Of a DNA stretch of 64,000 nt, positions 2,552 to 64,000 are shown in pieces. This DNA comes from an uncultured Clostridia bacterium (GTDB lineage: Bacteria; Bacillota; Clostridia; Christensenellales; CAG-917), in assembly GCA_934277645.1 (NCBI GenBank), contig CAKQUX010000001.1, forward strand, positions 386,110 through 450,109, read 5' to 3'. The translations under genes were made by a program, and so were the position numbers. Each line of letters begins with the position of its first letter. The first letter of the stretch is position 1. A model generated the notes under the pieces. The model was not told where the DNA came from and ran no database searches. It worked only from the letters and a program-made list of their open reading frames with translations.

Positions 2552-2561
2552 ACAGTCACCT

Positions 2562-7083: not shown

Positions 7084-7147
7084 AAAACACTCCGATGTTA
7101 AAATTAGCCTTAGCACGCCGTTTCGCGTACATATTGCTATATAAAAT

Positions 7148-7176: not shown

Positions 7177-7221
7177 AGGTATTTTCTCATTAAACGGCAA
7201 TGTCAAAGGTATTTTCTCATT
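7162..7221. repeat. Perfect 30-bp tandem duplication (2 copies)
   Basis: The unit aaacggcaatgtcaaaggtattttctcatt occurs at 7162..7191 and again at 7192..7221. Each copy carries the TTGACA -35 hexamer on the minus strand. Confidence 0.9.
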
Positions 7222-7268
7222 TGCCACGCCCAAAAAATGCTCCGACTTGCAAATTAAATCGAAAAAGG

Positions 7269-8211: not shown

Positions 8212-8289
8212 ATGAAGAAAAAGAACTTAATTATCAAATTAGCTTTATTCGTGCTTTTGCTCTCTCTTTCCTTTATGCTCGTTGCTTGC
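8212..8289 (+). other. Signal peptide with lipobox (LVAC, Cys26)
   Basis: It has a positively charged n-region (KKK), a hydrophobic core and L-V-A-C followed by G. Confidence 0.75.
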
Positions 8290-36693: not shown

Positions 36694-36789
36694 TTTGACC
36701 TCCGTTACTTTAAAAAGTAAATTATTTCTTTGAGTGCATTATAACATAATGCGGTTTAATTTTCAACAAATTTTGTAAATTTTTTATTC

Positions 36790-37895: not shown

Positions 37896-37924
37896 ATTTT
37901 AATATTTGCAAAGTTTACTGTCAA
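37896..37924 (-). promoter_or_regulatory. Near-consensus sigma-A promoter of the AEC transporter gene, bracketed by TTTGCAAA palindromes
   Basis: On the minus strand, TTGACA (37924..37919) is followed by a 17-nt spacer and TAAAAT (37901..37896). The palindrome TTTGCAAA occurs at 37887..37894 and 37905..37912. Confidence 0.55.
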
Positions 37925-38228
37925 CGATTTTTTTATTGTTAAACAGCCTATCGTATATCTTTTTAGTTATTGCTTTTTCGTAAGCGTCTTTATGTTTTAA
38001 ACGATTATAAAGTTCAAAATTATAACCAATTATTGCGCACAGAATTATCAGTCTAAAACGGCTATAAAGCTAAAAGGTTATTAAAATAAACTCTTATCAA
38101 ATCAAAAACACGTTAAACTAAAACTATTATGCCAATCGGTTATTAACCTGAAAATTTGTTACGGCAAAAATTATTAAAATAAAAATCGTTATAGTAAAAC
38201 GCCGAAACAAATAAACCGGCTAAAAGAA

Positions 38229-38260
38229 AAAGCCTATCGCTCTTGCGATAGGCTTTTTGC
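38229..38260 (-). terminator. Rho-independent terminator of the giant gene
   Basis: On the minus strand a 10-bp stem (agcctatcgc-aaga-gcgataggct) is followed by TTTTTCTTTT, ~28 nt after the TAA at 38290..38288. Confidence 0.8.
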
Positions 38261-38287: not shown

Positions 38288-41200
38288 TTAGTTGTTGCTT
38301 GTGACGGTGATATAGCTTGTGCTAAGTCCGTTGTTCGAGCCGTTGCCGTAACCGTTAGGAATTTCGGCGCCGGCTTTAAGAACTACTCTGCCGTTGACTT
38401 TGTAGTCGCTTGTAAGCACTCTTGTAGTAAGGACTCTGCCACTCTTATCTACCATTACGCCGAATATCGGTTGCAAGTAGTAAACGACTTTTCTGTTGCC
38501 CGAGAACTTAGGCAAGTAGTACTTCTCGTCTGCCGCAGAAATCGAAACGTTGTAGGTTGCAACTACTTGGTTTCCTGCCTTGTTGTAAACTTGGGCATAT
38601 CCGACGTATGCAACAGGCTTTCCGCTGTACTGAGTCAAGACGTAAGTCTTCGAGTTGGACGTTCCGCTAAGAGACGTACTTGTGGTCATAGTCGTTGTCC
38701 AAGCCGCAAGTTTTACGTCAACCGTAACACGTTGTTGCGAGCCGACTTTAATCGAAGCTAAGTAGCCCGTCTTTGCTGTCGATACAAACTCATACTTGAA
38801 GCTCGAAGGCATTGAGGTTTGTACGTAGTTGTACGACTTGCTTGTTGACGCTGCTGTTCCGAAGCTCGTTCCGTCATATTTTTGTTGCGCGAACGTTACG
38901 GTGTAACTTGTAGGCAACGTGTAGCTGTTTACGCTGAACGGAGTTACCGTGAATGCGGTAGCCGCCTTGCCCGTTGTCGTATTTACGTTCGTCGTATAGT
39001 TCGTGCTTGCAAGTTTTGAAATCATCATCTTGTAAACGTAGTACTTAATTTTGATTTCTTGTTTCAAGCCGCTCGGAACGGTAAGTTGAGCCGTGATTTG
39101 CGTTTCGCCGCCAACGTATGACGGATAGAATGCCGAGTAGTCCCAAACAAGTTTGTAAGTACTGCTGCTTTCCGTGAACGTTTGAGCTACGCCGTTCGAT
39201 ATCGTGTAAAGCGATGTCGGCATCGTAGGTCTTGTGTAATTATACGGGTCAATGTTTGAAATCGTTCCCGTGTATTTCGTGAAGCTGTCATACGATTGCG
39301 CTCCCGCAAAACCTGTTTGCGACTTAATCGACGAGTTGTTGTCCATATTGAACGTAATCGTTCTGTCGATATAGTCGACGATTTGCGTTACGTTAAGTTC
39401 TTTGAGTTCGAACTTATACTTGCTTACGTCGTATTCGTTGCTTGAGCCGATGACGACCTTAGTGTGTCCTTCGCCACCCGTCATATCGATTTCAAGGTTG
39501 TTGAAGTTCCATGCGATGCTTACTTCTTGAGTCCATTCGTTTGTGCCGTCCGTAAACTTAGCCGTGACTGCATTCGGGAAGTACTTGTCCGCATTGGTCG
39601 TTGTGTACTTTTCGTCTTTCCACGGGTCGAACTTAGCGCCGCTTCCTATGCCGACAGAAGACTTAAACACGTTGTTTGCCGTGGCGTCGGTCTTCGCAAA
39701 TTTTGCCGTACTCCAATCGAAATTCACGAAAGTCGATTGAACAATCTTGACAGGTGTGCGATAGCTTGCTGCGATCTTGTCGTTTCCGAATTTGACTTTT
39801 GCGTAAGTCGTTCCGCCGACAGCCGAGTAGCTAACGTCGCTAAGATCCCATTCCGTTACGTCAAGGTTGAACGCAACGTTGTAAACGTAGATATAATCGA
39901 AGTTACCGCTTCCACTGCTTTCATAACGACGAGTGATAGGGTCGATTCTATAAAGGATTGCGTCACTAGGTACGGTTGCCGTTGTGATTTTTGTTTCGCC
40001 CGACGTTGTGAGCGTCTTATATCCTATATAGTTTGCAACGTAGTTTGTTTTGATCCATTGACCGTCAAGGTAAGCGGTTATGCCGTTTGCATAATAAGTA
40101 TACTTGCCATCGACGTCCCTGCTATCGACAAACGGGTTGTAAACAGTCTTTTGCGAGCCGTTCATCGTGATAGCCGTGCCGCTTGTCGTAGCGTATGGAT
40201 AGAACTCATAGTTATAGTTCGTGTCGAGCGACTTCGAAGCTACGTCAGAGTTAAATCTCGTAAGATTAAAGCTCTTTATAGCGAGGTCAAGGTCAAACTC
40301 GTCAACGATAATCACGCTGTTTTCGTCATACTTGAATTCACCGTTATAAATGTTATTTTCGACGCTTCCGATGACGATAGACGCTTTAATCGTAGCCTTT
40401 GTCGTGGTCAAGCCGTCTGCCTTTTCAGGGACGTTACTCCAAACGATGTTGTACGTCATAATCTGTCCGTCCGAGAACGTAACTTTGACCGTCGTCGGGA
40501 ATACGTCTGTCGAGTACGTATACGGGTTTCTGAATTCGAGCTTCGAAATTTGGTTCGTCTTGTTGTCGTACGTTACAGTCATCATTTGGTCGAGAACCGC
40601 ATCGTCCATAAAGATATATTGTTTGCTCGTTCTGTACTCGTAGTATTTAAGTTGATCGTACTTGCCGTCGGTGATAAGTCTGATTTCGGCAATCGTTCTG
40701 TTGATCAAGTAAACAGGAATTCTGACTTCCAAAACCGCGCCCGATTCTGCCGTAAGCGTGACCATATTATCAGGCCATTCGAAGCCTTCGCGGCTTGTCT
40801 TGACGGTTTTGAGAATGTTTGCCTTGTTCGTCCAGTTTGCGTTGAAATTGACTTTTCTGTCCGCAATTTTTTGTACGTCAAACGCAACTTTGCCTTCACC
40901 GTTTACATAGCTCTTGACTTCTTCGTTTGCGATAAGAACGTCAAGGTTTTCCTTGAATGCGTCTTCCGAGATACCGCGATACGGGTCGAAGATGAGCGAA
41001 CGGTCGGTTACGTTTGCGACTTTCTTAACCGAGCGGTCAAGGAAGTAAACTTTAATCGTCTTTTCAATCACGCATTGCTCGCTTTGAATCTTAACGACGA
41101 TTTCTTGCGAAGTTCCGAAATACTTGTTCGGAGCGGTGAGAACGTCGCTCGGAAGTTGATAGCTAAGCGTTGCCAAGACGTCCATAGTGATTGCGCCCTC

Positions 41201-44200
41201 GCCTTCACCGATAGTTACGTTCTTTTCGTCAACTACAAAGTTGTTATCAAAGAGCTTTTTGACAAATCCTTGCGTGACTTCGTCTGGTGTTATGTCGTAA
41301 ATTCCAAGCACGTCGTAAACGTATGCTTCGTCGATATATTTCTTGAATGCTTCTTCAAGAATTTGCGCCTTGTCTACGCTTTCGATTGTAAGCGAGCTAG
41401 GTATATCGGTGAATACGAGTTCGCCGTCTTCCTTTGCATAACCATAACTTATAAAGTCTTCGCCAAAGCTGTTTTCGGTCGTGAAGCCGTTAAACGAAAG
41501 TCTGATCCAAGCATTTATCTCGCCACGGTTTTCAATTCCGTTTTCGTCGTATGCGACTTTATCCTTAGCGTTTGCTTTAAGCCACTCCACAGTTACGTTG
41601 TCAATCGTCTTATTTCCGCTTGCCGTCTTGACTACGACCGATGCCGTTGTAGGCAAGCCTTTGAAGAAGTCGGCAGCTTTAAGCGTGTAAGTTCCGCCAA
41701 AGTCTTGACCGCCGAGTTTGACGATTTCAAAATCGTAATAATATACGAAGTTGATGCTCTTTTCGATGCCTGCCATCGTAGCTTTGCGTGTGAACGGATA
41801 GCCCTTCGAGCTGTCATAGTCCGCTCCGCCGTTTGCTCTGATGTAGGCAATGATTTCGTCGGCGGTAGGCGCGCTGAGTCTGTCCCAAGTTACAGGAACG
41901 TTTTCATACGTAGCGCCGTTTTCGCCATTGACTTTGATTGTTCCCTTATTAGGAAGTTCGAACTTGCCGAACGCCATAAATTGATAGGTCTTTGCCGCCG
42001 CGGTTTGAGCTTCGGCAGATACCAAAGCCTCTCCGCTTGCTTCGCCGCCGTTTAAATCGGTTTCGAACGCAAGGTCGAAGTCAAAGTCAACGTCCTCGCC
42101 GTTCTTGTCGACGTTTTCAAGAATAATCTTGATTGTGAGCGTTTGTTCAAGAGCTGTTCCGCTATAGAGGGTAACCAATCTTTCAACGTACTTCGTTCCG
42201 TCCTCGGCAGTGAGATATTCTTCCGCCTTAGGGCTTGTTTCGGTGTTGAACTTGAAGTCTGCTACTTCATATTGGTTTCCACGGCAAACTGCAAATGCCA
42301 TGGTTGGAACGGTGAAGTTCGAAAGCACGTCATAGCGATATTCATATTCACCCGTTTCGGCGTTTTCGGTTACTTTAACAGAGCCGTCTGCAAATCTAAG
42401 AGCCGATACTTCGTAAGGCGTTACGCCAAGCGTCAAGTCAAACTCTCTGTTTCCGACAGTGACTCCGATTGTGACCTTATCGGACTTGAAGTTGGTGATA
42501 AATTCACCCTTCTTGTTCTTACCGACAAGGTTGTCAATGTTAAAGTGTCTGACGTATGCAGGAATTTCGGTTGTAACGACTCCGCCGACAAGAACCTCTT
42601 TGTTAAGTTTGACGGTTACTTTTCTGTCGGTATTGCCCCAATATCCGTTGTCAGCCGCTTCGCCGAAGATTGCGTCGAATGCGCTCTTGTAATCTTTATC
42701 GGTGTAATAACGATAGATATCAATCGTATTGCCGATAGCTTCGAATGCGCTGTTAAACGTGATGGCGTTGTTGCCAAGCGTTTCGAGTCCGTATTCGGTT
42801 GCGTTGATAGTAATCTTAATAGCTTGCGAAGTACCCTTATAGCTTGCAATCGGAGTAATTCCGTCTGCGCCCATAACGACTTGATACTTGCCGTCGACTA
42901 ATTCGACTTTGTCAGCTCTGACTTTTGCATAGAACGTGCCGCCCTTGAAGATATTGTCAACTTTCTTCGTGCAAGCCGAGTCGCTGTAAAGTTGCATGTT
43001 GTCCCAATCAAGGCTCATCTTGTGCGTTACGTTGCCCGCAAACGATACGTCAATGACTTTCAAAGCATCGTTTGTAAACCAGTCAGGATTGAGGCTATCC
43101 TCGACCGCAATCGCCGTTCCCTTTGCCGCCATCTTCTTGACGGTTATCGGAAGCGAAACGTTTTGGAATCCGTAGTTCTTTGTTCCGAGCGTTACGCCGA
43201 GTTTAAGTTTGCCCGAACCGGTGTAGCCCATATAGGTCAATTCTTCTGCATTTACGCTTGGAATGTTGTACTTCATATCTTGACCGAGCGTATAGGTTAT
43301 GCTCTTTGTAGAGTTGCCCTTATCCATAGTAGCCGAAAGCGTATTTCCGATTGCGGCTTCATCGATAGTTGCATACTTGTACGGGTCAATTTGAACGTCC
43401 GCTTTTCCGAATTTCTCGAATGCGGTAGGAGCGACCTTAATTCTGAATTTAAGCGCTTGATATACCCAGTAGCCGTCAACGCCGTTTACGGTGCCTGCGA
43501 CGTATTTCGTCGTAGCCGTGTCGGTCGGATAGCCGCTGAAGTATTCGCTTGCGAAGAAGGTCTTGCTGTTTCCGCCTCCGACGTAACCCGTAACGATGAC
43601 GTCAATGCCCTTGAAGTAATTCCAGCACTTGTTCGTTTGATCGTAAAGCGCGTCGATTGCGTCTTTAAGAGGTTTAAGTCCCGAGCAATCGTCTTGTCCG
43701 CCAAGACTCCAGCTAAGGTCAAGCTTGTAGCTTTCAACGTCTTGTTCGACGCCGTCGATTTCGTAAGGCGCATAGTTACCTTCGAGTCTGTTCATAGACT
43801 TGATGTATGCGTACAAGTCGAACGCATAGTTTGTGTAATTTTCTGCCGTTACTTTTGAAACGTCTACAAACGAGCTGCCTTGTCCGTCCGTAACCAAGAA
43901 CTTGTTCGTGCCGTTCACGAAGCCGCCCTTCTTTACGTCGTAGCTTACAAGTTTTGCGCTGTCAAAGCCTTGCAACGTATCGACGGAGTAATCGAGAGCG
44001 CCGCTGCTGTTTGCATAAGCAAACTTAGTGACGTTGCCGACCTTGTAGTTCTTAATCGGAATTTCAACCGATTCGGTGTAAGTTCCGCTAAGACCCCAGC
44101 TGAACGTATAGCTGACTTTGACCACGCCGCCTGCAAAGTCGTAAACGAAGTTCTTTTCGTTCCACGTTATCTTGCCGACAGGATAGTTTGCGGTAACTCC

Positions 44201-56200: not shown

Positions 56201-59200
56201 TCCGATATCGGTCAAGTTGACGCACTTGACGTTTTCGACGTTCGCCGCAGTACGTTGCGAGATAGGGATTACAGTCGAACCCGTTTCGTCGCTGTACCAG
56301 ATATAGTTGTTAAGGTTGTAAACAACGTTGTTGTAGCTGAAATAGAATACGTCGGTGTTGTTTACGTCCGTTTCCGCATTCTTAGATGCGATAGACGCAT
56401 TTGCAAAGTAGCCGTAGCCGTATCTATCGACGCTCCAATCCGATTCGATTCCGTCACTTCCGACGTAAATCGCTCTGAATGCTTGGTTGCTTACAACGTC
56501 GAACTTGTCTGCTTTTGCATACAAGCCCGTGTCGTTTTGATGCCAACCGTAGTTGTACGTTTGGACGCTCGAAAGGTCAACGGCCGTTCCGTCGATGTCA
56601 ATCGAAACTACGCCGTTTGCTCCCATAACGTAATTTGTCAAGTCATAATACGTATCGCCTATCTTGACGTATCTACCGATGGTATTGGTCAAGTTGAGCG
56701 CAACGTATTCCGAACCTATTGCAACGTATTTGCCCGTATCAGCGTTAGACACCGTGCCGCTTTCGTCATTATAACGGCTGTGAGTCGAAACGTTGTAATA
56801 CAATCCGTCGCTACCCTTGACGATGAAATACAAGTTTGCAGGAATAATTGCAGACGCAACGTAATCGACTTCTTTTTCAAGTCCTGTGCCGTATGCGTAA
56901 TAGCCCATCGTATAACGCAAGTTTTTGTTCTCGTCTTTTAAGAGATCTTCGCTCCAATCGAGTTTTTCGTAATAGAGACCGCCCGAAACTTTAAATTCGC
57001 CGTTTTCGTTTTCATAGTAGACGTTGGTATCGATTGCGTGACGCTTGTAATACTTAAATTCGCTTGCAAGGTAAATGAGCGTAGCGTCACCGTTTACGAT
57101 ATAGTAATCGCCGTTCGTATCTTCCACGCCTTCGACATTGCAAATTGCAATCGACGAAATCATAACGTATTTATTGTTAGCTTTGTCATAAGCGTAATTG
57201 TTTGTAGCGTTCGTAAGAACGTCAATCATATCGCTTATTTCTTCATAACTACGACTAAAGCGTTGATCTTTGCAAATCTCCGAATAATCGATAAGTTCGT
57301 GGCTGAACTTGCCCTTGTCAAGGCTAAGCGACAAGTTGAGCACGTCGAATATATCTCCGATATCGCCGAGCGTCGGCATAATCATCGAAAGGATAACCGC
57401 AAAGAAGCTCTTTGTCAAAACAAGTTGAATTGCAGGGTCCGAGATGATAAGTTCCAAAACAGCTTGGTTTGCCGCATCCGACGAAACGTCGCTCGTCAAT
57501 GCTTCAGTTCTGTCTTTGATGCCGCCCGAAATTTCATCCGCTTTGTCAACGACGTCGCTTATGGCGTCGTCTGCTTTATCGATGCCCTTAATGACGTTTT
57601 CGATAACGCTTACGATATGCGGAATGTAAGCTGCAGGAGCGCCTGCAAAAAGTTTTCTTCCGTCAAGATACAACGTATCCTGAGCAAGATACAAACCGCC
57701 TTTAACGATAGCGTTTCCTTCCGAATCGTATTTATAATTTCCGTAAGTGTCGAGTTCCAAAAGTTCAAGCGAAATTTCAAGAGAACGAAGTTCGCTCTTG
57801 TTGAGGAAGTCGAGAATGCTGTATTGTTTCTTATACGTTCCGTTTTCTTTATCTTCTTCGTAGGTCGTTTCGATAACCTTACCGTTTTCATCGACTTTTT
57901 CGACCTTCGAATACTTCGTGCCTTTATACTTTCTGCCCTCGTTTTCTGCTCTTGCTTCCCAATCGCTGATAAGTTCATAGCCGTTTGCCGTGAAGTAATC
58001 AAGGAACAAATCGCCAAGGTTGAAGTTTGCGCCGATTCTTACGCCGACCGCGCTATAGAATTGTTGGTCAGCCATAAGCGAAACGACCATGTCTCCGAAG
58101 TACTGAGCAAGCATATCCGAAGAATTGAGGAATTGCGACAAGTCGTAGCTTGCACTGCCGTCTGCGCTTACGTAAAGTTTGCCGTCAACCGAAAGGTTGT
58201 AGGTTTGCGACGTGAATTTCGTAAGGTCTGCAAAGTCGTTAGGCGTTACTCCGACTCCGAGAATAGAAGTCGTTGCGCCGATATCGATTGTAAATGCGGC
58301 GGCAAGAGCAAGTTTAAGTTTCAAGCCGTCGGCAGTTTGCATTCCGACCGAAATAGACGGTTTGCCGTCGAAATCGTCGTCTGCGAGTTTAAGGAAAAGT
58401 CCGCTCGTGCTTTCGTCAAGATTGAATCTGCTAAGGTTTACCGAATTGTCACTGAACAATGCGATGACCGCTTGAAGCATATCGCTGTTGAACATAATGT
58501 CGAACGAATCGAAAGTTTTGAGCGTTGCGCCGCTTCTGAGTTTTGCCTTTACGACTACCGTCTTTACGATAGCATTCAAAACCGCGGCAACAAGTTTTGT
58601 GCCTTTAAGTTGTTCTTTTTCTTCGTCGGTCGTGCCGGCTTCTTCTTTATTGCCACCGCCGATCATATCGAAGATAAAGTCTGCGCTGATCTTTGCTCTC
58701 GGTCCGTCAATTCCTTTAAGGTCTAAAAGCAAATAGTTGTCTACAAGATAAATACCTACGGTCTTTCCTGCGATAGCTTGACGGTTGTGATCCATAGCGC
58801 AAAGTTCGATACCGAATTCGCACGCTTTAAGAAGTTGATCGATGGAGAAGTTTCCAAGGAAATCTTTAAGCTCCATACCGCCGTCGATAACGCTGTAAAT
58901 TCCGAGTTTTTGAAGGTCGATGTTACCTTTAAGAGTAAGGATAAGCGTCGTGTCAACCATATCGTCAACGTAGAACTTGAACGCAATAGTTTTAAGCAAA
59001 TCTTTAAGCGAAACTTTGTTTGCGCCCGAACCGAACGAGAAACCTTTTATAAGGTTGTTTATGAAATCGAGGTTCAAAGTTGCGTCGAGAATTTCTTGGA
59101 ACTCTCTCGGCACTCTTTGATACGTTCCGTTTTCGTCTTGAATGAAGTGTACTCCGTCCGATGCCAACGAGTATCTGTCCGACTTAGGAACACTGCCCGA

Positions 59201-62200
59201 TGCGATTTGAGTTTGCGTCATCTTGACAAAAGTTGCGTCAAGCGAGTAGTTGAAATAGAAATCGAACGCAAACGTGATACACGGATTGTCGTCGAAGTTG
59301 TTGAGTGTCGAATTGCCGTTTTTGTCGACACCTGAAGTAAGACGCGTGATAGCGTCACTGAGTTTTTCGCCTACGCTTTGCAATCTTTCATAGGTATCGA
59401 GCAACGAGATAGGCAATTTTTCTCCGCCTATTTCGACGTAGTAATTTGCCCAAGGATTGGTTTCGCCTGCTTTTACAGGGTCACCTGTGAGCGGATTAAA
59501 CGTGTCGCCGACCTTTTCAAAAACGTTTTCGCGAGTAAGTTTATAGTAAACGTCCGTGTTCGATTGTCTGACGTAGTAGCCGATAAAGTTATCTACTTCG
59601 TTGAAGTCTATTTCGGCATAACGGTCTTTTGCCGCACCCGTTGCAAGGTATGGTCTTACAATCGAAAGGCTTACCGACAAAATCTTGGAATCGAGTCCGA
59701 CAAGAATTTGCGGGATTGCGGTGTCGATCGTAAATTCGGCAGACAAGCCGAGATCAACAGGATTGCCGTTTTCATCAACCATCTTGCTGAGAATGGTGTC
59801 GATGTCGACTTGTTCGTCTTCCGGCTTTCCGTTGTTAAGAACGAAGTTGATAATTGCTATTATAAGGTTTTGTGCAAGCGTGATAGAAATTTCTTTGCTT
59901 GCAAGAGCGATGACGGTTTCGAGAGCTTCTTTAGCTTTGTCGCCGCCCTCTTCTCCTTCATCCGAAATTTCGGCTTCACCGTCTTGCGTGACCGAAGTCG
60001 TCAATTTCTTGACGAGCCCGTTTATCGTATCGCTGACGATTGTGCCGACGTCGATATTGTTCATAACGAAGTTGTCTTCGCTAAGCGCGCCGAGTTCGAC
60101 GTAAAGGTCGGTGCCTAAAATGTAAACGCCGAACAAAACTTTGCCCGTGGTCTTATCGCGAAGGACGAGATAAAGTTGAGTGTCGTTTTTACTTTCGGTG
60201 TTGATGCTGGCTTCGATTTCGAGAGCCATATCGAGATAAATGTCTTCTTTAATGTCAAGACCGAAGTCAAGAGCAAGGTCGGCAACCAACGCTTTCAAAT
60301 AGCTGTCGATTTTGATAATGCCGTCCTCTTCTTCCTGAGAGTTTTTAAGTTGTCCTTGAATGTCGATAGCAAAACTAAGGCTGAACTGCGACAAGTTTTG
60401 AAGAGCTATGTAGTCGGTTCTGTTTATGTCTTTACCTATCGATTGTCTGTTGAAAGATATTGTAGGTTTGACGATTGACAAGGTTACCTGCAACGGATCG
60501 ACGCCCACAGACAGTTCAAGGTCTTGCGCCGCCGTGTTAAGTTGAACATACGAACGGTCAGGCGTAAGCTCGATCATAGGTTTAAGCGTCTTCGTTCCGT
60601 CAGGATTTACTTGATAAAGCGACGGAATGAATTGTGCAAGCAATACGGCAACGAACTTCGACGAGAAGTTGACAAGAAGCGTATCTTCTTTAAGCGTAAT
60701 CGCGCTAAGTCCCGTGCCGAGAATGACTGCAAGAAGATTGAGCGAATCGTTAGATGCAGTAGTATCCTCACCTTCGCTTCCTACTGCTTCGTCGGCGAGT
60801 TCATAGCACTTGACGTAAAGGACTTTCGACAAACCTGCATAAGTTGCGGTAATTGTGACCGAACCTGCCTTTTTAGCCGTGACGACAACGCCGCCTGCCG
60901 CCGTAACGGTTGCAGTTGCAATGCTTTCGTCTGACGATACTACTTCGACCTTGCCTGTAGGATTGCTGAACGGTACCCACGGTGTTCTCGAAGAGTCGCC
61001 TACTTTGATTTCACGAGAAACGGCGTCTACAACGGTAACTTTGATTTTCTTGGTTACGGTAGCTCCCTTTTCATCGGTATAGGAAACCGTAAGAGCAACT
61101 TCGCCCTTAGCTTTTCCGTTTACTTTGATTCTGTTTCCGCCAACGATTTCGGTAGTGGCAACGGTTTCGTTTGCGCTTTCGACTTTAAGTCCGGCAATGC
61201 TGCCGTCTTCCGCTTTCTTTGCGTCTTCGAATACGTCGTCGGAAATGAAAGTTTCAGCCTCGCCGAGAGCAACGCCCATATCGAAATCGTACTTGGTTTC
61301 AAACATACCCAAAATCTTGCCGATATCGAAACCGTCAAGCATAATGTGAGTATTTTGCCAAATTCCCAAATCTATATCGAGGAAGAGCGTGCTGTAAGGT
61401 TGTCCGAAGTTGTTGTTTCCTTGATATACAAGATACAAGCCCAAAGCCTTCTTGCTCGTAGAAAGTCCGACCTTTCCGTCCCAGATTTCGATTGCGAGAT
61501 CCGAGTGGGTAAGAATATATTCGATATTCATAAGGTTTTTAAGGTCAAACGTCTTTTCCTTAATATTGATTCCCGAAAGGTCGAGTCTCAAAAGAGCCGA
61601 AATCTTAAATCCGAGTTCGTCGCTGATCTGCGCAGGAATTTCAAACGCAAGCATAAGTTGATAAAGCAAACTTTCAAGAGCAGGAGAATCCGTCTTGTAA
61701 AGGCTTTCAATCCAGCTGCCTACGTCCCACTTGCCCGCATCGCTGTGCGAATCGCTTTGATATGCGTATGCGCCGAGCGAACCGCTAAGCTCTAAATAAA
61801 GTCCTTCGAGATTGATTGTTCCGTCGTCGTTAAACAAAGCGACGTTGACGTAACCTTCGCCGATTGCCTTGTCGAGACCTTCGATGTCGATTTGCGAGAA
61901 TTCGACTTTCGGAGCGTTAAGGTTAAGCGAAACGGCGATCATATCTTCATCTTTTTCGTTCTTAATTGCAAGCGAGCCTTTAAGACCGCTGTCGTAGTGC
62001 GTAACCACGCCGTCCACTACCTCGTCGGTATCTTTGTAACGAAGTTCAAGCGATGCCGAGATGCCGGCAAATCCGAGACCGAGTTTATTGAGAACAAGTT
62101 CTGTCAAACCGTCTGCGACTTCGACAAGGATTCTCGAATCGGACATTGCGACCGAAAGAAGAATTGCAAGGTCATAGTTTTTGATATTTCCGTCTTTGTC

Positions 62201-64000
62201 GGTATATTTGGTATCGAAATCGATTGTAGCCGTAGTACCCGCTTCAGGGTTTGCAGGCTTAATCGATTGAAGCCAGTTGTTGCCGAGAATGACTTGCATC
62301 AAAAGTTCAAAGAGATTTACTTCAAGTGCAATCTTTTCAAGTCCCAAGTATTCGACGTCGACGTACATCATTCCGCCGATATAGTAAAGTCCGAGAACGG
62401 TCTTATAGCTTGCTCCGCCGTCAAGCGTGCGTTGCAAGTTGAGCTTGAATTGCGTCTTGTTGTTTGCAAACATCGAACCTGTTTTGACCATCTTTCTGTA
62501 CGTTTCTTCGTCTCTCAAGAATTGGATGAGCGGCGTAAGGTCAGCCGAAAGTTGAAGGTCGTATTTGTATGTAATGTCGATATTTTCTTCAACGACAAGC
62601 GATTTGATTTGGCTGTCGATGACAATTCCCAAAGTGTTGAGAAGTCCGGCAATGCCTTGGTCAAGGTCGACTTGACCTGCCTTGATGTTAAGGTCAAGTT
62701 CGCCGTTCATTCCGACGTAGAAATACGGCGATTCCATAAAGTTTGCGTATCCGCTTTCGCAATACATGCCGTTTGCGTCAACGACGTATCCGATAAGTTT
62801 TCCGTCTTCCGTCGTCTTTCTCGAATATCTCGTTCCGGAGTATGCCGCGCTTTCTTCGTCGCTGAGTCTGCGATACTCAGGAGCTTCCATTCTGTCGATA
62901 GATGCCTTAACCGTAAGGTCGCTTACGGTAAAGTTCATATCCATACGGTTACCTGACGAAAGGTAAAGGTTGACTTTCATTTCGTTGAAGTTGAGTCCGT
63001 CGCCTAAGCTAAGTCTCAAACCGCCGACCATAGAGTCCGTATTGCCGATAATAAGTTTGTCGCCAAGACCTAAAACTTTGAGCAATTCGGAAACAAGGCT
63101 ACCTGCAAGATAAATTTCAAAGTAGTCCGCGCCAAGGTCTGCGCCCGAAATTACAGCCGCGATAATCGCAGGAATGTTGACTGCGGATGTTTCCGCCTCG
63201 GCGGTAGTTTCACCTTCGTTCGATTTATCTTTGATAAAATCGGTAAGGTCGATTTTGACTTTTGCGATGTTATAGAATGATAAATCTAAATATATTACTT
63301 TATTTATATAATAAAGGTCGATGTACGTTTCTCCGCTGACAGCGTTGCTGATGCTGAGATGCACTTCGCTCTTCAAGAAATCTTTAAGATTGATATTTCC
63401 TTCGATGCTGAACACGAATTTATCTTGCGTCGTGTTGTCGAGCTTCATAAGAAGTTGAAGAAGCATCGTCGTTTTTGCGTCGATATCTTTGTACGTAATG
63501 TCGGTGAAATCACCGCTTGCCGTGTAAAGGTCGAATTCGCCTTTAAGCGAAACGTAAATTTCTTCCAGCTTAAACTTGCCGTCGTCGTCTTTCGCAAGGT
63601 CGAGATAGCTCGATTTTTTAGCTTCGACGTTACTCAAAACTTCCGACATTTCTTTGTTGCCTCTCATTGTCGTAAGGCTACCGTAGAAAACGTTTGCACT
63701 GATTCTTGCACTGAAACCGTCAAACGGTTCGGAAAGGCCTACACGCAAAACGAAGTTCGCACCGGTAAGTTCGTCTCTTTCAAGCGAGATAGAAGCGTTG
63801 TCAATAGGAAGTTCCGCCTTAGGGTTGAACATCTTTACGATTTTGTTCAACGTGCTGCTTGTAAGAGCAAGGTTGAAACGTTTAAGGTTGAGCAATCCTT
63901 GTTCGCCCATAACGATTTCGATATTCGAAATGACTTCCGCAATAATCGACGTAAGGTTCGACGTGTCGATAGCCGCCGATGACGCTTCGCTCGTAAGAGT
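38288..64000 (-). CDS. Giant (>8,570 aa) modular, apparently non-enzymatic protein; 5' end outside the window
   Basis: The frame is stop-free over 25,713 nt. The first in-window Met is at 63910, but the 30 upstream in-frame codons (TLTSEASSAAIDTSNLTSIIAEVISNIEIV) are also open. It has its own terminator. Composition and repeat logic are coherent along the whole length. Confidence 0.9.
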   Translation of the reverse strand, partial: TLTSEASSAAIDTSNLTSIIAEVISNIEIVMGEQGLLNLKRFNLALTSSTLNKIVKMFNPKAELPIDNASISLERDELTGANFVLRVGLSEPFDGFSARISANVFYGSLTTMRGNKEMSEVLSNVEAKKSSYLDLAKDDDGKFKLEEIYVSLKGEFDLYTASGDFTDITYKDIDAKTTMLLQLLMKLDNTTQDKFVFSIEGNINLKDFLKSEVHLSISNAVSGETYIDLYYINKVIYLDLSFYNIAKVKIDLTDFIKDKSNEGETTAEAETSAVNIPAIIAAVISGADLGADYFEIYLAGSLVSELLKVLGLGDKLIIGNTDSMVGGLRLSLGDGLNFNEMKVNLYLSSGNRMDMNFTVSDLTVKASIDRMEAPEYRRLSDEESAAYSGTRYSRKTTEDGKLIGYVVDANGMYCESGYANFMESPYFYVGMNGELDLNIKAGQVDLDQGIAGLLNTLGIVIDSQIKSLVVEENIDITYKYDLQLSADLTPLIQFLRDEETYRKMVKTGSMFANNKTQFKLNLQRTLDGGASYKTVLGLYYIGGMMYVDVEYLGLEKIALEVNLFELLMQVILGNNWLQSIKPANPEAGTTATIDFDTKYTDKDGNIKNYDLAILLSVAMSDSRILVEVADGLTELVLNKLGLGFAGISASLELRYKDTDEVVDGVVTHYDSGLKGSLAIKNEKDEDMIAVSLNLNAPKVEFSQIDIEGLDKAIGEGYVNVALFNDDGTINLEGLYLELSGSLGAYAYQSDSHSDAGKWDVGSWIESLYKTDSPALESLLYQLMLAFEIPAQISDELGFKISALLRLDLSGINIKEKTFDLKNLMNIEYILTHSDLAIEIWDGKVGLSTSKKALGLYLVYQGNNNFGQPYSTLFLDIDLGIWQNTHIMLDGFDIGKILGMFETKYDFDMGVALGEAETFISDDVFEDAKKAEDGSIAGLKVESANETVATTEIVGGNRIKVNGKAKGEVALTVSYTDEKGATVTKKIKVTVVDAVSREIKVGDSSRTPWVPFSNPTGKVEVVSSDESIATATVTAAGGVVVTAKKAGSVTITATYAGLSKVLYVKCYELADEAVGSEGEDTTASNDSLNLLAVILGTGLSAITLKEDTLLVNFSSKFVAVLLAQFIPSLYQVNPDGTKTLKPMIELTPDRSYVQLNTAAQDLELSVGVDPLQVTLSIVKPTISFNRQSIGKDINRTDYIALQNLSQFSLSFAIDIQGQLKNSQEEEDGIIKIDSYLKALVADLALDFGLDIKEDIYLDMALEIEASINTESKNDTQLYLVLRDKTTGKVLFGVYILGTDLYVELGALSEDNFVMNNIDVGTIVSDTINGLVKKLTTSVTQDGEAEISDEGEEGGDKAKEALETVIALASKEISITLAQNLIIAIINFVLNNGKPEDEQVDIDTILSKMVDENGNPVDLGLSAEFTIDTAIPQILVGLDSKILSVSLSIVRPYLATGAAKDRYAEIDFNEVDNFIGYYVRQSNTDVYYKLTRENVFEKVGDTFNPLTGDPVKAGETNPWANYYVEIGGEKLPISLLDTYERLQSVGEKLSDAITRLTSGVDKNGNSTLNNFDDNPCITFAFDFYFNYSLDATFVKMTQTQIASGSVPKSDRYSLASDGVHFIQDENGTYQRVPREFQEILDATLNLDFINNLIKGFSFGSGANKVSLKDLLKTIAFKFYVDDMVDTTLILTLKGNIDLQKLGIYSVIDGGMELKDFLGNFSIDQLLKACEFGIELCAMDHNRQAIAGKTVGIYLVDNYLLLDLKGIDGPRAKISADFIFDMIGGGNKEEAGTTDEEKEQLKGTKLVAAVLNAIVKTVVVKAKLRSGATLKTFDSFDIMFNSDMLQAVIALFSDNSVNLSRFNLDESTSGLFLKLADDDFDGKPSISVGMQTADGLKLKLALAAAFTIDIGATTSILGVGVTPNDFADLTKFTSQTYNLSVDGKLYVSADGSASYDLSQFLNSSDMLAQYFGDMVVSLMADQQFYSAVGVRIGANFNLGDLFLDYFTANGYELISDWEARAENEGRKYKGTKYSKVEKVDENGKVIETTYEEDKENGTYKKQYSILDFLNKSELRSLEISLELLELDTYGNYKYDSEGNAIVKGGLYLAQDTLYLDGRKLFAGAPAAYIPHIVSVIENVIKGIDKADDAISDVVDKADEISGGIKDRTEALTSDVSSDAANQAVLELIISDPAIQLVLTKSFFAVILSMIMPTLGDIGDIFDVLNLSLSLDKGKFSHELIDYSEICKDQRFSRSYEEISDMIDVLTNATNNYAYDKANNKYVMISSIAICNVEGVEDTNGDYYIVNGDATLIYLASEFKYYKRHAIDTNVYYENENGEFKVSGGLYYEKLDWSEDLLKDENKNLRYTMGYYAYGTGLEKEVDYVASAIIPANLYFIVKGSDGLYYNVSTHSRYNDESGTVSNADTGKYVAIGSEYVALNLTNTIGRYVKIGDTYYDLTNYVMGANGVVSIDIDGTAVDLSSVQTYNYGWHQNDTGLYAKADKFDVVSNQAFRAIYVGSDGIESDWSVDRYGYGYFANASIASKNAETDVNNTDVFYFSYNNVVYNLNNYIWYSDETGSTVIPISQRTAANVENVKCVNLTDIGQKVKVSDFDTVAKLQANEEVYKISGADSDYKYFFFKGYYKAEKGEYKWVAAEYSLVLPYEERYTEITYFREYESGDYIFDNSNVEYYVELASSNASGVRNTITKSAYDALNETEQANYGAIGSFVLYDNLTAEKKEQFASSTRYQKVSDYYLFSYLVAHADELYVQDINGYYGKTTNTDGTVRYETYDSSKHNHRYSKAVNNVIVKTEAEANVGKQNYEEKIVGTYVKYKGNEDKLAAYENIAVEIGGEKYVIYSVLTDELKAALSSMRYVAILDVFTYDADETYTYPAYVAYDEFKDYKLTADKYLSELIGSADRSAFMENYWWVNTTEGYVLWSSLTAQQKASYSARVKYVLDYSVKGSKYDLRNDDGKNYGSYTFDITQSEYMRKSTKYTSISDFGITLGVKAGTFGFGVSIGGLNIGFGSTASLLPKDINEAIPFTKSTVGASVDVRLHGEFTAGTVDLGRVFSGIVGDISGVVVEVPEYTAGVTKMDFRMSVSALLDFSDLSKSELKAELIDISAVDVEEVFIGVYYQDGSLYIDAEKLGLPKMVINELDFITDTLNDLLVKIFGDDVYNSEQIQNEAGGADVDYNVALQILLSNKHFSVRIGKQLIDFALGLIKFGDVSLKDFIYEGIDYSGFADVKVSLDDLEATEIGAEISFRMPAGSKYVQVKIENLFDGENNLTDEAKTAIEAAQEANGLKKDGVAEKLMLFIEDPDGIWAFDSANNIFVRGTAITTGSRFTPYAYGTTEFNAALQAAEKDGAKTIYYILVEGESANYDTYAKEVNFSLGINNVSLKFAQTDRTRPLTDDAIKDYTLYSEIENVVIEERIDVTTYLAGGDLDLSEWVQLFFQDESLADLEGIIKVMDETGDYLNRKTYLDMKIDIKLASIINSIRKTILDKEIAGTTEDSEKKPTWREGDLDLQLLFDTLKGGGIDIVKILSLVNAEFKIVTQGSSYDASTGQTVTTEENTLVRMYFAGGNYALVCDYVTIDGYNEYVKVDEYDEANKDKYEWNAEGTELVRYRYDDIEKQYISGTGAEYGLIKYFPYKDNVDSYSGIRYSKNYKGYYTDANGKYMAVVDHEKLGNTASKDKWSHYFVNPYGDYAYDILNKEFFNVKELERQYAAEGKKLDLSDTDRYSADRYSYDPVNYYQNEYGVYSFVPGGLNIDLTGLGLAAYTVDSFTLTEIGNKLFNKDKNSEASTTDDTTGGDNTGDDNTDDNTGSKISLPLLPDNICEYIRSFLYGMQVTSNYISIMLHANYLNVIADLVTGEDTSFSFDFDFNKRSYLRINTDAKRYRFDSLVTNDANTDLDASGNTDVNGGIRLSTNPTEILTDEFGAQITYEQFVTDESRLVYAVLPRTGDTGNYVFIDKNTQLVKFTAAEKAHITAGTNNQIPTGGQELLDYFDNVFYSGGKLNEYLATIGQSYLTLKSTVADAEYVSNVAGEDYLTYDIYRVHIVKVGSSYVITCNGQTKTYDSIDDFKTEIGARRLFTVTVDDDALAPLVELLLYVFDNYIGVDIQSPKLSFTKYSYTSNGADTFPTSMTYDIIDNFGTMALNAGELSSLSVNGKSFGEDVDSEQGVSHATIQMTIADGSASGYKVAIRNANRYSISGSFGDATSLIANRFDGKICAYDKYQAVYTANANVATQDDDGEWLLIEYTRSDKTKQEFFIRLYSAADLSAGKLTETVGFNYYGTGALQITDSTLTSKVSYYRWLRFDFVRHYDENGYVIRNKYVRENSLTSMITADKFYGYDAGEYVYNDILNDYFNSPLYVKTADGTFAYYNKAVYGELSEGLKVGDELEVRISSVNLSGKKLGTGEGEINENLTTKVGKVIVTKSGADLVKTFILDTAIAWYTMDESGEFSAFSGTATENTSLYAKAGDEYFCLAYYDVKTNAIVAFDRYDELRYMNVTEISSVSMVLGGTFSLSGDYSSTELSKVLYSVFGELTTALTISEPGKKLNNTFGYSIALNLDVDIDPMSLFNGGKITDMIKLHNLDLAIDIWTTKDDGSRDKQFIGLYYLDGVVYVDLSFFLADGGFFKIDLGADAVEVIVANLLKGNEAGQADGTIRGADRDKAGFYIDFVLDMITASISSKLIGMIVTEITGEETIADMLENLPNMVPYVGMSVAKGEGSTFLGVKIYDTTGETEILDVNFSVFGIDTKHSHMMFGNKAGYYGNAKSITSLTGDLYRKEYLTEDGKLRVNIFDDNSDNAKDLMTNEECRNKFRLIASVDLAKIFSGEMQFADAFDINWGKAELSAKLDVSLEVLAGIINFSEEFGALLDAEVMAYIKSLSEKIEEIGQDNNTYFTATLSAYVDLAKFMNDKLTFVEKLGGAQINLIMTVNSNLLPYDKDPTNGGAAQDINVNVTVLFDEEGKISLYVDFEDLGSRMGLGEAFNKIKFEGLDISGIVNNDKEAVIADEAISSASTFVDGEEGSAGIFGSDILNVLKVMFKEIQVLQGEVRVNFMSTMFDSLLGFLTQNQTLRDMVKLPQIDDGGITLSLNDGFSVGIDLSLAVAGGREYMPKEMWLGESDTTWKGDRYSFAAFDASDLENAGVYGYTNNLFGKATSDTIGTLYVFTVDDKHGNYYLDTTDGGTVYYYDNAGNKQTATGTFRLVTSDLDKSAYTGNYFSLSKLYVQYATYADFKAAYPNSETTEAQFNSGIDKFVATAGTENFTAKTLYIAVLDSTGAYVKPSDFSLAVGLNNIKLEYDIEKSSVSYVENDVTYVATRIYTDGETLGANETHPEGSNYVFMATTNFNALKDMELNLTFEGGISFHAAALDDKGLSNIVDLSGLAGLVFGDDSSLANTNVTVRIKNDMDMEFTIGMYVYLDLKHPETMEAVLTLNKKNKDTGVSERFLSLYVAPSFNANGEYQGHTIYLDAYFLLGNDGRIAISNFDVATMLNGLLGGLLNSSEASTSSLSEAAGLTMHQLAYALIMFKPEYLGVAINTAAINEIVNFYRRADGKEEKEIFSSSAAAEFMLKLATVHNSANEGDTSLTTTILAKMNDSFYASIDIDDLKVDTGAKVAYQFNDDGTVANANLAKGTGKLPNKSELDQYTVVFDIGNKKLMVEKLSLKLSGEVTITSNTSNEEGTFANWLGKFVRNTLGKLLDSDMNKLGSFNFYLPSILSLIMDAELDINLAAMFTSAGTLNMGGIVYSDMKIDVRFGEPLNSQFLSLYYLGSSKLSGSAGSGADTNRDIINSKTGLFNDAFYIDLTAFGLGKVKLSGLVGLLGGNSGKVEAQSSGYAETTDEAKTQATGAIDMGVVSGELLLEETSIGINFNSSFIERIFDMLNVDFGTAGNPPFGDIAISVNFDNGLESATFEMALDNKGTNIGANISGISVKFGEKAGLIDVENLVNELKTGYGALDMGTLSVGGIVQQLIDSMDPTLSIVYSKKTSDSRVVTNVNLFSGWGAGGKSDKAGSTVSITMTKGSKSIDKSATLDRLKLAISAKHPMRSSNYSLEGYIFNGNVALTGIASNFGGLAGAIVGIFDPLNLGSYIGDKSTGKIFTITDILKGNNDYFNYPSNGKFGEIYSTNDKDEEKEYQWMPKINNVIKSLNVQLFGTNKVSWSPYGSKFSASGNSLRYSTVEINFDKDTFNDLLSYLFYMIVSMINNDDFVSRMNDYRSGGNKYTTTKALLTAVENASSSTARRNIVEPYANAMPAAFMPWLISDMGGVAGNICAAAHTEIKEISYLLDSLLPLPYANSSAKALIYIDSLTNTGTGVDGGIKAIELYIDASRSTTTSNGSNYLQLIIQPTTASDNLLSLCEVETVSIPSGQASVPSRINLLDPSTREAQAIYGSAKKSIFLTAEYFTDEKLFPQIANAYFSDGTKDEYTGKSGYDENGGVAIVWDASSVDLTTSHSKTERLIGYVYGYVMNKVVYVVPVYTTNSYSVSSISGLTYKSGKILTKDLVIDMKANDTSKGTAVSNAAFNVTLPENVQITFENGSAYTFSTHYADYAEYGTAGRAAYVEYAKYLKTAFGFTGTVATSASGKDTFTGVTANYPVGKITWNEKNFVYDFAGGVVKVSYTFSWGLSGTYTESVEIPIKNYKVGNVTKFAYANSSGALDYSVDTLQGFDSAKLVSYDVKKGGFVNGTNKFLVTDGQGSSFVDVSKVTAENYTNYAFDLYAYIKSMNRLEGNYAPYEIDGVEQDVESYKLDLSWSLGGQDDCSGLKPLKDAIDALYDQTNKCWNYFKGIDVIVTGYVGGGNSKTFFASEYFSGYPTDTATTKYVAGTVNGVDGYWVYQALKFRIKVAPTAFEKFGKADVQIDPYKYATIDEAAIGNTLSATMDKGNSTKSITYTLGQDMKYNIPSVNAEELTYMGYTGSGKLKLGVTLGTKNYGFQNVSLPITVKKMAAKGTAIAVEDSLNPDWFTNDALKVIDVSFAGNVTHKMSLDWDNMQLYSDSACTKKVDNIFKGGTFYAKVRADKVELVDGKYQVVMGADGITPIASYKGTSQAIKITINATEYGLETLGNNAITFNSAFEAIGNTIDIYRYYTDKDYKSAFDAIFGEAADNGYWGNTDRKVTVKLNKEVLVGGVVTTEIPAYVRHFNIDNLVGKNKKGEFITNFKSDKVTIGVTVGNREFDLTLGVTPYEVSALRFADGSVKVTENAETGEYEYRYDVLSNFTVPTMAFAVCRGNQYEVADFKFNTETSPKAEEYLTAEDGTKYVERLVTLYSGTALEQTLTIKIILENVDKNGEDVDFDFDLAFETDLNGGEASGEALVSAEAQTAAAKTYQFMAFGKFELPNKGTIKVNGENGATYENVPVTWDRLSAPTADEIIAYIRANGGADYDSSKGYPFTRKATMAGIEKSINFVYYYDFEIVKLGGQDFGGTYTLKAADFFKGLPTTASVVVKTASGNKTIDNVTVEWLKANAKDKVAYDENGIENRGEINAWIRLSFNGFTTENSFGEDFISYGYAKEDGELVFTDIPSSLTIESVDKAQILEEAFKKYIDEAYVYDVLGIYDITPDEVTQGFVKKLFDNNFVVDEKNVTIGEGEGAITMDVLATLSYQLPSDVLTAPNKYFGTSQEIVVKIQSEQCVIEKTIKVYFLDRSVKKVANVTDRSLIFDPYRGISEDAFKENLDVLIANEEVKSYVNGEGKVAFDVQKIADRKVNFNANWTNKANILKTVKTSREGFEWPDNMVTLTAESGAVLEVRIPVYLINRTIAEIRLITDGKYDQLKYYEYRTSKQYIFMDDAVLDQMMTVTYDNKTNQISKLEFRNPYTYSTDVFPTTVKVTFSDGQIMTYNIVWSNVPEKADGLTTTKATIKASIVIGSVENNIYNGEFKYDENSVIIVDEFDLDLAIKSFNLTRFNSDVASKSLDTNYNYEFYPYATTSGTAITMNGSQKTVYNPFVDSRDVDGKYTYYANGITAYLDGQWIKTNYVANYIGYKTLTTSGETKITTATVPSDAILYRIDPITRRYESSGSGNFDYIYVYNVAFNLDVTEWDLSDVSYSAVGGTTYAKVKFGNDKIAASYRTPVKIVQSTFVNFDWSTAKFAKTDATANNVFKSSVGIGSGAKFDPWKDEKYTTTNADKYFPNAVTAKFTDGTNEWTQEVSIAWNFNNLEIDMTGGEGHTKVVIGSSNEYDVSKYKFELKELNVTQIVDYIDRTITFNMDNNSSIKSQTGFAGAQSYDSFTKYTGTISNIDPYNYTRPTMPTSLYTISNGVAQTFTESSSTYKLVWDYSAFYPSYVGGETQITAQLTVPSGLKQEIKIKYYVYKMMISKLASTNYTTNVNTTTGKAATAFTVTPFSVNSYTLPTSYTVTFAQQKYDGTSFGTAASTSKSYNYVQTSMPSSFKYEFVSTAKTGYLASIKVGSQQRVTVDVKLAAWTTTMTTSTSLSGTSNSKTYVLTQYSGKPVAYVGYAQVYNKAGNQVVATYNVSISAADEKYYLPKFSGNRKVVYYLQPIFGVMVDKSGRVLTTRVLTSDYKVNGRVVLKAGAEIPNGYGNGSNNGLSTSYITVTSNN
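38291..44923 (-). other. C-terminal array of ~2,200 aa of Ig-like (Big_4-like) units of the giant protein
   Basis: The recurrent pattern is (L/F)P..V.V.F(S/T)DG....(V/I).(V/I).W, for example FPTTVKVTFSDGQIMTYNIVWSNV, FPNAVTAKFTDGTNEWTQEVSIAWNF, ANAYFSDGTKDEY..VAIVWDASS and VPVTWDRLS. Confidence 0.55.
55061..57223 (-). other. Tyr-rich hairpin-like insert region of the giant protein (residues ~2230-2950)
   Basis: It contains many short units such as NGDYYIVNGDATLIY, VYYENENGEFKVSGGLYYEKL, GDTYYDLTNYVMGANGVVSI and KYFFFKGYYKAEKGEYKWV. Confidence 0.6.
60800..61189 (-). other. Two tandem Big_2-type bacterial Ig-like domains inside the giant protein (residues ~908-1037)
   Basis: The two domains read LKVESANETVATTEIVGGNRIKVNGKAKGEVALTVSYTDEKGATVTKKIKVTVV and KVEVVSSDESIATATVTAAGGVVVTAKKAGSVTITATYAGLSKVLYVKC. 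Confidence 0.7.

Follow-up and report, generated by a model that had tools for sequence, protein, structure and literature searches.

We analysed a 64,000-nt stretch of DNA (hereafter the window) from an uncultured Clostridia bacterium of the order Christensenellales (GenBank assembly GCA_934277645.1, contig CAKQUX010000001.1, positions 386,110 to 450,109), part of which is taken up by a single minus-strand open reading frame (ORF) of giant size. The window also holds the rnf operon, murC, spoVG, gap and fba. A preliminary description made from the letters alone had reported the giant frame as free of stops from base 64000 down to a TAA at 38290..38288. Translation of the reverse complement agrees with this: 8,570 sense codons are read from 64000 to 38288 and the only stop is the terminal TAA. 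In the two other frames of the reverse complement this region has 266 and 551 stops, which excludes a chance origin of the open frame. No stop is reached in the other direction up to base 64000, so the gene runs on past the window. Its features at this end are as follows.

38288..64000, minus strand: coding sequence for residues 549-9118 of a 9,118-residue protein, with the stop codon (from the stop count, an identical ENA contig and substitution rates)
38227..38258, minus strand: intrinsic terminator, a hairpin with a T-run behind it, seen by direct reading about 30 nt past the stop

The preliminary description had proposed extending the contig upstream; the length of the complete product is given by an identical contig. 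ENA contig k141_337999 (ERZ27286994; 511,103 bp) is 100 % identical to the window over 21,017 nt, and its gene call gives a product of 9,118 residues. Exactly the same length, 9,118 residues, is obtained when the 548 N-terminal residues of a 96 %-identical orthologue (P0001) are joined to the window ORF. The first 548 codons lie beyond base 64000, with the N-terminus 1.6 kb outside the window. The window ORF covers the 3′ 94 % of a genuine gene of 27.4 kb, which belongs to a gut bacterium of the order Christensenellales (Clostridia) and looks monocistronic. At its 3′ end the terminator predicted just past the stop is present, with a stem AAAAAGCCTATCGC, a loop AAGA and a stem GCGATAGGCTTTTT at 38258..38227, then CTTTT; this hairpin is known from direct reading and was not listed by a consensus scan. 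At the 5′ end, the contig carrying P0001 has a TTGACA-17-TAAAAT site about 100 nt ahead of the giant gene and a GGGAG ribosome-binding site ahead of the ATG. The start codon of P0001 is preceded by a 1.2-kb non-coding gap (L001 6979..8147), in which a GC-rich run of alternating CGTG/CGCG-type repeats (ACGTGCGCCCACGCGCACACACGTGCGTACGCGTATATGCG) lies between the promoter-like site and the ribosome-binding site. An Rfam search of this gap gave nothing credible (best E = 0.038, under the gathering score).

Dozens of antisense 'shadow' ORFs lie opposite the giant gene (39464..63982, plus strand), mostly with TTG or GTG starts; the largest, at 39464..42055, has 863 aa. They are probably a by-product of the codon usage of the giant gene and could be mis-annotated by an ORF-calling pipeline.

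The ratio of nonsynonymous to synonymous substitution rates (dN/dS) is 0.134 relative to a 92 %-identical orthologue (locus L004; 1,832 codons compared) and 0.125 relative to a 72 %-identical one (locus L003; 3,580 codons compared), both of which are stop-free. The best-conserved part of the giant protein served as query in a scan of metagenome contigs, with ORFs judged across the fetched DNA only. This returned 47 loci, many labelled human gut, and all 47 carry an uninterrupted ORF of 1,900-6,400 aa (5,000-6,400 aa in most). Cluster look-ups revealed that the same giant proteins have been re-assembled repeatedly, as near-identical copies of nearly equal length from separate assemblies. Examples are clusters with 19 members (7,264-7,268 aa), 9 members (7,879 aa) and 30 members (mostly 7,104-7,128 aa); one member of the last cluster is found on 26 contigs, the longest of 1.04 Mb. 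The GC content of the giant gene (0.45-0.48) is close to that of the remainder of the window. The only DNA tandem repeat that TRF lists in it is a 2-copy 27-mer, consistent with the earlier statement that the gene is not a simple tandem repeat. Frameshifts and stops, which the preliminary description had named as observations that would undermine the gene, are found in none of dozens of independent assemblies. Searches of plasmid and phage sequences returned no match. An artefact, a chimera or a pseudogene is excluded for practical purposes, and the locus demonstrates that giant genes devoid of DNA-level repeats can be assembled reliably from short reads.

A core of about 90 residues recurs 11 times along the protein. 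The copies were located with an iterated hidden Markov model (HMM), which finds at least 11 of them in the protein. The core consists of strands of alternating polarity ending in 'hGlYYxxxxLYvDLxxlG…kIxl', then a helix, and identity among the copies is 11-26 %. They are positioned as follows (residue numbers refer to the 9,118-residue protein).

Outside the window: core copies 1 and 2, starting at residues 76 and 380
63236..63475, minus strand: core copy 3, residues 724-803 (iterated HMM, domain E = 5e-25)
62309..62542, minus strand: core copy 4, residues 1035-1112, '…VLGLYYIGGMMYVDVEYLGLEKIALE…' (iterated HMM; modelled as a β-meander plus helix, pLDDT ~80-87)
61415..61573, minus strand: core copy 5, residues 1358-1410 (iterated HMM)
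60047..60280, minus strand: core copy 6, residues 1789-1866 (iterated HMM)
58673..58864, minus strand: core copy 7, residues 2261-2324 (iterated HMM)
54530..54733, minus strand: core copy 8, residues 3638-3705, among the best-conserved stretches (iterated HMM, homologue occupancy)
50072..50299, minus strand: core copy 9, residues 5116-5191, whose whole module, 4930-5202, matches 845-1122 (HMM, self-comparison)
47513..47776, minus strand: core copy 10, residues 5957-6044 (iterated HMM)
46523..46768, minus strand: core copy 11, residues 6293-6374, where conservation in the family is highest, 'YYLGSS…FxDAxYIDxxGLGLGKxK' (HMM, homologue occupancy)

With longer profiles the homology extends over about 280-300 residues, for example between 845-1122, 4930-5202 and 5243-5451. 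The GLYY…LYxDL module, which makes up about 70 % of the length, is a new domain family with no counterpart in the Pfam, NCBIfam and PDB libraries that were searched. Seven of the 11 cores are trailed within 40 residues by an acidic or Thr/Ser/Gly-rich loop of 16-25 residues, and these loops were modelled as disordered in the structure predictions described below.

Low-complexity loops, acidic or rich in Thr/Ser/Gly, are seen at residues 804-823, 1886-1910, 2328-2350, 4340-4374, 5205-5225 and 6388-6410 (window ~44771..63235). Their position directly after core motifs is kept and their sequence is not; one of them is a 35-residue 'TTDDTTGGDNTGDDNTDDNTGS' run. Such loops could be hinges, glycosylation sites or cation-binding sites.

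Besides the modules, the protein has large insertions between them, a centre that is conserved in the family and an array of immunoglobulin-like (Ig-like) domains at its C-terminal end.

60596..61003, minus strand: lineage-specific insertion with two Big_2-like Ig segments, residues ~1550-1680 (window residues ~1000-1135)
55055..57247, minus strand: Tyr-rich insertion 1, residues ~2800-3530 (43-58 Tyr per 500 residues)
50495..52147, minus strand: Tyr-rich insertion 2, residues ~4500-5050, poorly shared with homologues (Tyr content, occupancy)
44045..46897, minus strand: conserved centre, residues 6250-7200, comprising the final module, a β-rich section, a helical bundle and the first of the Ig-like domains
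38291..44656, minus strand: array of strongly diverged Big_4-like Ig domains at the C-terminus, residues ~6997-9118
39500..39604, minus strand: Big_4 (PF07532), window residues 8133-8167 (27.5 bits against a cut-off of 22.1, E = 2.2e-6)

The Big_2-like insertion is missing in most homologues (occupancy 0.15); its Pfam Big_2 match (E = 1.8e-4, 21.9 bits) is under the 22.8 cut-off and the second copy was read by eye. Tyr-rich insertion 1 is likewise largely lineage-specific, with a homologue occupancy of 0.04-0.36, and matches no Pfam or NCBIfam family. Self-comparison detected no sequence repeats within the Tyr-rich insertions or between most of the C-terminal domains. The centre is the best-conserved part of the family (occupancy >0.9 and 23-43 % identity across 8 full-length homologues), peaking at residues 6301-6400 with 43 % identity across the full-length homologues compared.

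The Big_4 match is the sole Pfam domain above its curated cut-off in the giant protein, and in homologues, too, Big_4 is the only match (32.5 and 29.6 bits). A profile iterated from it finds 5 copies in the giant protein and 3-7 per homologue, while the signature 'V.V.f.DG……V.W(D/N)' occurs about 10 times between residues 6997 and 8830. The C-terminus is Ig-like and conserved among homologues (31 % identity at residues 8801-8900). One distant family member has in addition a Flg_new match just below its cut-off (26.2 versus 27 bits). The preliminary description had found no assignable function anywhere in the ORF; the C-terminal quarter does hold recognisable, very diverged Big_4 Ig-like domains.

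The N-terminus, which lies outside the window, was examined in orthologues for a signal peptide ending in the lipobox pattern [LVI][ASTVI][GAS]C. P0001 begins with a lipoprotein signal peptide, MKRKLVLILTVILLAVIVGTILTAC|GE, and a lipobox L-x-[AG]-C is found at the N-terminus of P0002, P0003 and all full-length homologues inspected. The Cys of a lipobox is diacylglycerol-modified and the signal peptide is cleaved through the Lgt/Lsp pathway. No transmembrane-like segment was found in the 9,118 residues beyond the N-terminal signal peptide, the only other hydrophobic stretch scoring 1.93. A lipoprotein signal peptide and the absence of any other such segment indicate that the protein is exported, and it probably is anchored at the cell surface by lipid.

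A C-terminal LPXTG sorting signal was not found; the C-terminus reads …GLSTSYITVTSNN, with no hydrophobic segment, and the sole LPxTG string (LPRTG, residue 4505) is internal and not followed by a transmembrane segment. We accordingly reject a sortase substrate. The motif scan of the giant protein also returned no RTX motif, no HExxH and no dockerin-like motif. With no RTX nonapeptides, and no Pfam matches to condensation, adenylation or ketosynthase domains, an RTX protein, a nonribosomal peptide synthetase (NRPS) and a polyketide synthase (PKS) are rejected as well. A single Walker-A-like string, 'GWGAGGKS', sits in a loop not conserved among homologues. The motif, transmembrane and Pfam scans together uphold the absence of Walker A, NRPS/PKS, RTX, LPXTG, C-terminal transmembrane and dockerin signals that had been noted by eye. 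The count of 21 Cys in 8,570 residues is in keeping with the estimate of about 20. As for composition, Tyr (6.2 %) and Asn (6.3 %) are enriched as claimed, but Leu, which the preliminary description did not list, is the commonest residue (8.5 %).

An exhaustive HMMER search with an 11-copy profile against 1.84 billion cluster representatives retrieved 117 representatives at E<=1e-3, of which 18 reach E<=1e-30; many have 6,500-7,900 aa with 9-14 matched stretches. Far from being unique, the protein belongs to a sizeable family and is its longest member seen. End-to-end colinearity is apparent by BLAST, with 30-36 % identity to P0005 and P0121 and 21-27 % to six others of 7,300-7,900 aa. The source databases name these sequences 'hypothetical protein' and distant members 'carboxypeptidase-like regulatory domain-containing protein'; six shorter family members gave no match in Pfam.

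The genomic position of the gene is shared as well, and the search for orthologues and synteny that had been proposed earlier found the downstream gene order kept in all of the divergent loci inspected among the 47 metagenome loci. Upstream, close relatives have phosphoglycerate mutase, HGSNAT/acyltransferase, GH20 and PIG-L deacetylase genes, then a gap of about 1.2-1.7 kb. Downstream lies a triad (window 34493..37806, minus strand) of an AEC/Mem_trans transporter, an SPFH/Band_7_1 protein with three zinc ribbons and a zinc-ribbon protein, which is kept in all divergent metagenome loci inspected (L006-L052) and may reflect either a functional link or plain conservation of gene order. In these divergent loci the neighbours are 45-55 % identical to those of the window and the giant protein 23-27 %. 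The giant genes are orthologues at one ancient locus, the giant protein diverging about twice as far as its neighbours. Exposed surface proteins typically show this kind of fast divergence relative to the genes around them.

The 96 %-identical orthologue P0001 lies in locus L001 (GCA_022768415.1, JALELE010000139.1), a metagenome-assembled genome (MAG) labelled 'Acidaminococcus sp.'. The neighbours of P0001 and all other close relatives point to Christensenellales, Bacillota or Clostridia MAGs, and the label is probably due to a mis-binned contig or a mislabelled MAG.

Most of the protein cannot be placed in a named family, as the preliminary description had stated. Pfam and NCBIfam together cover <2 % of its length, the NCBIfam search being empty, and Big_4 is the sole exception. 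Sequence and profile searches of PDB with the giant protein gave nothing significant, and literature searches found no description of this family. Repeats of a characterised adhesin family, which would have spoken against novelty had they covered most of the length, did not appear in the profile searches.

Foldseek on modelled tiles had also been proposed, and two tiles were folded with AlphaFold2: residues 549-1448 (23 aligned sequences; mean predicted local distance difference test score, pLDDT, 59.5) and residues 6250-7200 (13 aligned sequences; mean 53.9, with the helical bundle at 73-87). Both tiles show mixed β/α modules plus disordered loops. The many helices in the two models suggest an α/β rather than an all-β protein, so that the 'beta-type throughout' of the preliminary description was only partly right. 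The low confidence of these models makes both the fold of the module and the 'beads on a string' picture tentative. Three Foldseek searches (PDB twice, BFVD once) gave no match at E<=1e-3. The top non-significant matches were hot-dog thioesterases, BFA1 and DUF3598 for tile 549-1448, and LprG and LprF for tile 6250-7200 (TM-score <=0.39 on the target, probability 0.44-0.57). The match of LprG (3mh8_A) to the model of the centre, itself of mean pLDDT 53.9, has E = 0.067, probability 0.57, a TM-score of 0.37 on the target and a root-mean-square deviation of 10.5 Å. Curved antiparallel sheets wrapping helices or ligands may serve as a lead for the module topology, and they are no finding. Alignment of the module region with E. 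coli TamB by hhalign gave a probability of 0.2 %, the Pfam models of AsmA, TamB, Chorein, LolA and LppX did not match at E<=1, and no β-taco fold is present in the Foldseek lists, a weak test of fold given two low-confidence models. No adhesive or ligand-binding domain family was matched in Pfam/NCBIfam at E<=1 and there was no significant fold match; a catalytic domain was not detected in the Pfam, NCBIfam and Foldseek searches.

Giant Gram-positive fibrillar adhesins are known, for example Ebh of Staphylococcus aureus, along with other stalk-plus-tip surface proteins. Like the Ebh-type adhesins, the giant protein would be an exported surface chain of several thousand residues built of repeated domains, including Ig-like ones, poor in Cys, acidic and fast-evolving. 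The repetition expected of a fibrillar-adhesin stalk is found, with at least 11 module copies plus 5-10 Big_4-like copies. It differs from them in its anchor, which is an N-terminal lipobox rather than a C-terminal LPXTG or transmembrane segment, and in its repeats, which are about 15-25 % identical whereas theirs are near-identical tandem copies. In addition its main module is absent from Pfam/NCBIfam and no adhesive tip domain was recognised. Surface proteins with Big_4 (PF07532) resemble it in that one domain passes the cut-off and the signature occurs about 10 times in the last 2,100 residues, but the Big_4-like segments are a small part of a protein of which 70 % of the length is the new module.

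Giant proteins of Clostridia have been described from gut metagenomes, built from RCC1, Listeria-Bacteroides repeat, YG repeat, dockerin and leucine-rich repeat domains (West-Roberts et al. 2023, bioRxiv 10.1101/2023.11.21.568195). The present family shares with them the class Clostridia, the mammalian gut metagenomes and the prediction of a giant surface protein, but is nearly devoid of known repeats apart from Big_4 and the sub-cut-off Flg_new match in one member. Omnitrophota giants have many transmembrane regions and a divergent SecA-DEAD helicase domain (bioRxiv 10.1101/2023.11.21.568195), whereas our protein has one N-terminal hydrophobic segment only and no helicase match in Pfam. Giant bacterial surface proteins are already known as a kind and size alone is not unprecedented. 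What sets this family apart is the N-terminal lipid anchor, the lack of near-identical repeats, a module not listed in the libraries and a single syntenic orthologue across a clade recovered mostly from metagenomes of the human gut.

Taken together, these observations lend support to the view of the preliminary description that the ORF encodes an undescribed giant cell-envelope or extracellular protein: orthologues carry a lipobox, there is no other transmembrane segment and no named family applies. By analogy with known systems we think it fairly probable that this is a giant, fast-evolving surface fibre or adhesin-like protein. After export the lipobox Cys would be lipidated and the signal peptide cleaved, so that the N-terminal end of the chain stays fixed to the outside of the cytoplasmic membrane. 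Next would come at least 11 α/β modules, each with a β-meander ending in GLYY…LYxDL, an acidic disordered loop and a strand-helix element; together with the large Tyr-rich insertions these could form a long segmented stalk through and past the wall, made flexible by the acidic loops within the module chain. The conserved centre, the Tyr-rich insertions and the distal Big_4-like Ig array might then be exposed at a distance from the cell, to bind or to serve as a coat. We hypothesize that such a surface fibre attaches to particles, mucus, glycans or other cells, and/or acts as a protective surface coat.

Several points weigh against a fibre or adhesin. The lipobox was seen in orthologues, outside this window, and both AlphaFold2 models are of low confidence. 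The function is read from topology and analogy only, with no adhesive domain recognised. Gram-positive fibrillar adhesins are typically anchored at the C-terminus and have near-identical tandem repeats, neither of which the giant protein has. Finally, the presence of a single copy at the same place throughout a clade is just as compatible with a structural or housekeeping role in the envelope.

This last point is the starting point of the alternative that survives best, although we consider it doubtful. The protein may be a structural envelope component, that is, a coat, spacer or sheath, a substitute for a surface layer that is lipid-anchored rather than SLH-anchored, setting the architecture of the wall or capsule or shielding the cell. 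A single orthologue at a fixed syntenic position in very divergent genomes, strong purifying selection (dN/dS ~0.13), conservation of much of the length end to end and the lack of a recognisable adhesive tip domain are all consistent with such a role. The fast divergence and the large lineage-specific Tyr-rich insertions are more typical of proteins facing changing ligands, phages or immunity, however, and nothing points to lattice formation. A structural coat also overlaps with the surface fibre, and the two are inseparable by sequence.

It is conceivable, though improbable, that the first ~6,400 residues form membrane-tethered 'sheet-wraps-helix' cavities or a groove that moves or stores hydrophobic molecules across a thick envelope, or that they build a clade-defining surface organelle which small-genome gut Christensenellales need for a life attached to other cells. 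If true, this would be a new class of protein architecture and not another adhesin.

Improbable, too, is a carrier or conduit that spans the envelope and conveys lipids or other hydrophobic cargo, with the modules as LolA/LprG-like or AsmA/TamB/VPS13-type units. It would account for the best, non-significant Foldseek matches being curved antiparallel sheets that hold hydrophobic ligands, and for modules with amphipathic strands and very hydrophobic helices in a lipid-anchored protein. LolA/LppX/LprG and AsmA/TamB-type proteins would share with the giant protein a lipid anchor and curved antiparallel sheets plus helices, LprG and LprF being among the top Foldseek matches for the centre. Against such a carrier, the structural matches have Foldseek E>=0.067 and TM-scores <=0.39, with no match at E<=1e-3, no match to the AsmA, TamB, Chorein, LolA and LppX families and the hhalign probability for TamB given above; disordered acidic loops also interrupt the modules. 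Clostridia of this order are generally taken as single-membrane, so that a bridge between two membranes would have no place.

The size, surface location and rapid evolution of the protein would also fit a vehicle that delivers a polymorphic toxin or another contact-dependent effector. We reject this as very unlikely, since the C-terminus is conserved and Ig-like and not the variable tip of a toxin, Pfam and NCBIfam show no signature of a toxin, Rhs/YD, PT-HINT or an immunity gene, and a conserved transporter is encoded downstream. An origin of the ORF in mis-assembly, chimerism or gene decay, or in a mobile element or phage, could appeal to the metagenome-assembly source and to the orthologue in the Acidaminococcus-labelled MAG, but is negligible given intact, colinear copies under purifying selection in dozens of assemblies, chromosomal synteny with housekeeping genes and no plasmid or phage match.

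Within the human gut flora, Christensenellales are heritable, associated with health and for the most part uncultured. The family looks, in one or more of their clades, like a large, conserved, fast-evolving surface protein to which about 27 kb of genome is given over. The giant protein is an obvious candidate for the means by which these bacteria make contact with particles, mucus, phages, the immune system or partner cells. Its GLYY…LYxDL module adds at least one new domain family, with 117 cluster representatives and up to 14 copies per protein.

Elsewhere in the window, a second orphan surface protein of 1,500 aa is encoded at 8212..12714 on the plus strand. It matches no Pfam family at E<=1e-3 and has a lipoprotein-type signal peptide (…SFMLVAC|GE), a C-terminal transmembrane segment, a Lys-rich tail and a five-fold internal pattern ending in 'GYAFFDNVKLEK'-like motifs. 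A complete rnfB-A-E-G-D-C operon at 1706..7272 (minus strand), identified by eye from translations, is ordinary context for an anaerobic Clostridia genome, and two small TSUP/TauE-like membrane protein genes come after it. The gene following the giant ORF probably starts at ATG 37806 and not at TTG 37911, because the ENA record calls a 338-aa product. This start makes the spacer to the giant gene about 480 bp long rather than the 376 bp first proposed; a near-consensus TTGACA-17-TAAAAT site lies at 37924..37896 (minus strand) and overlaps TTG 37911.

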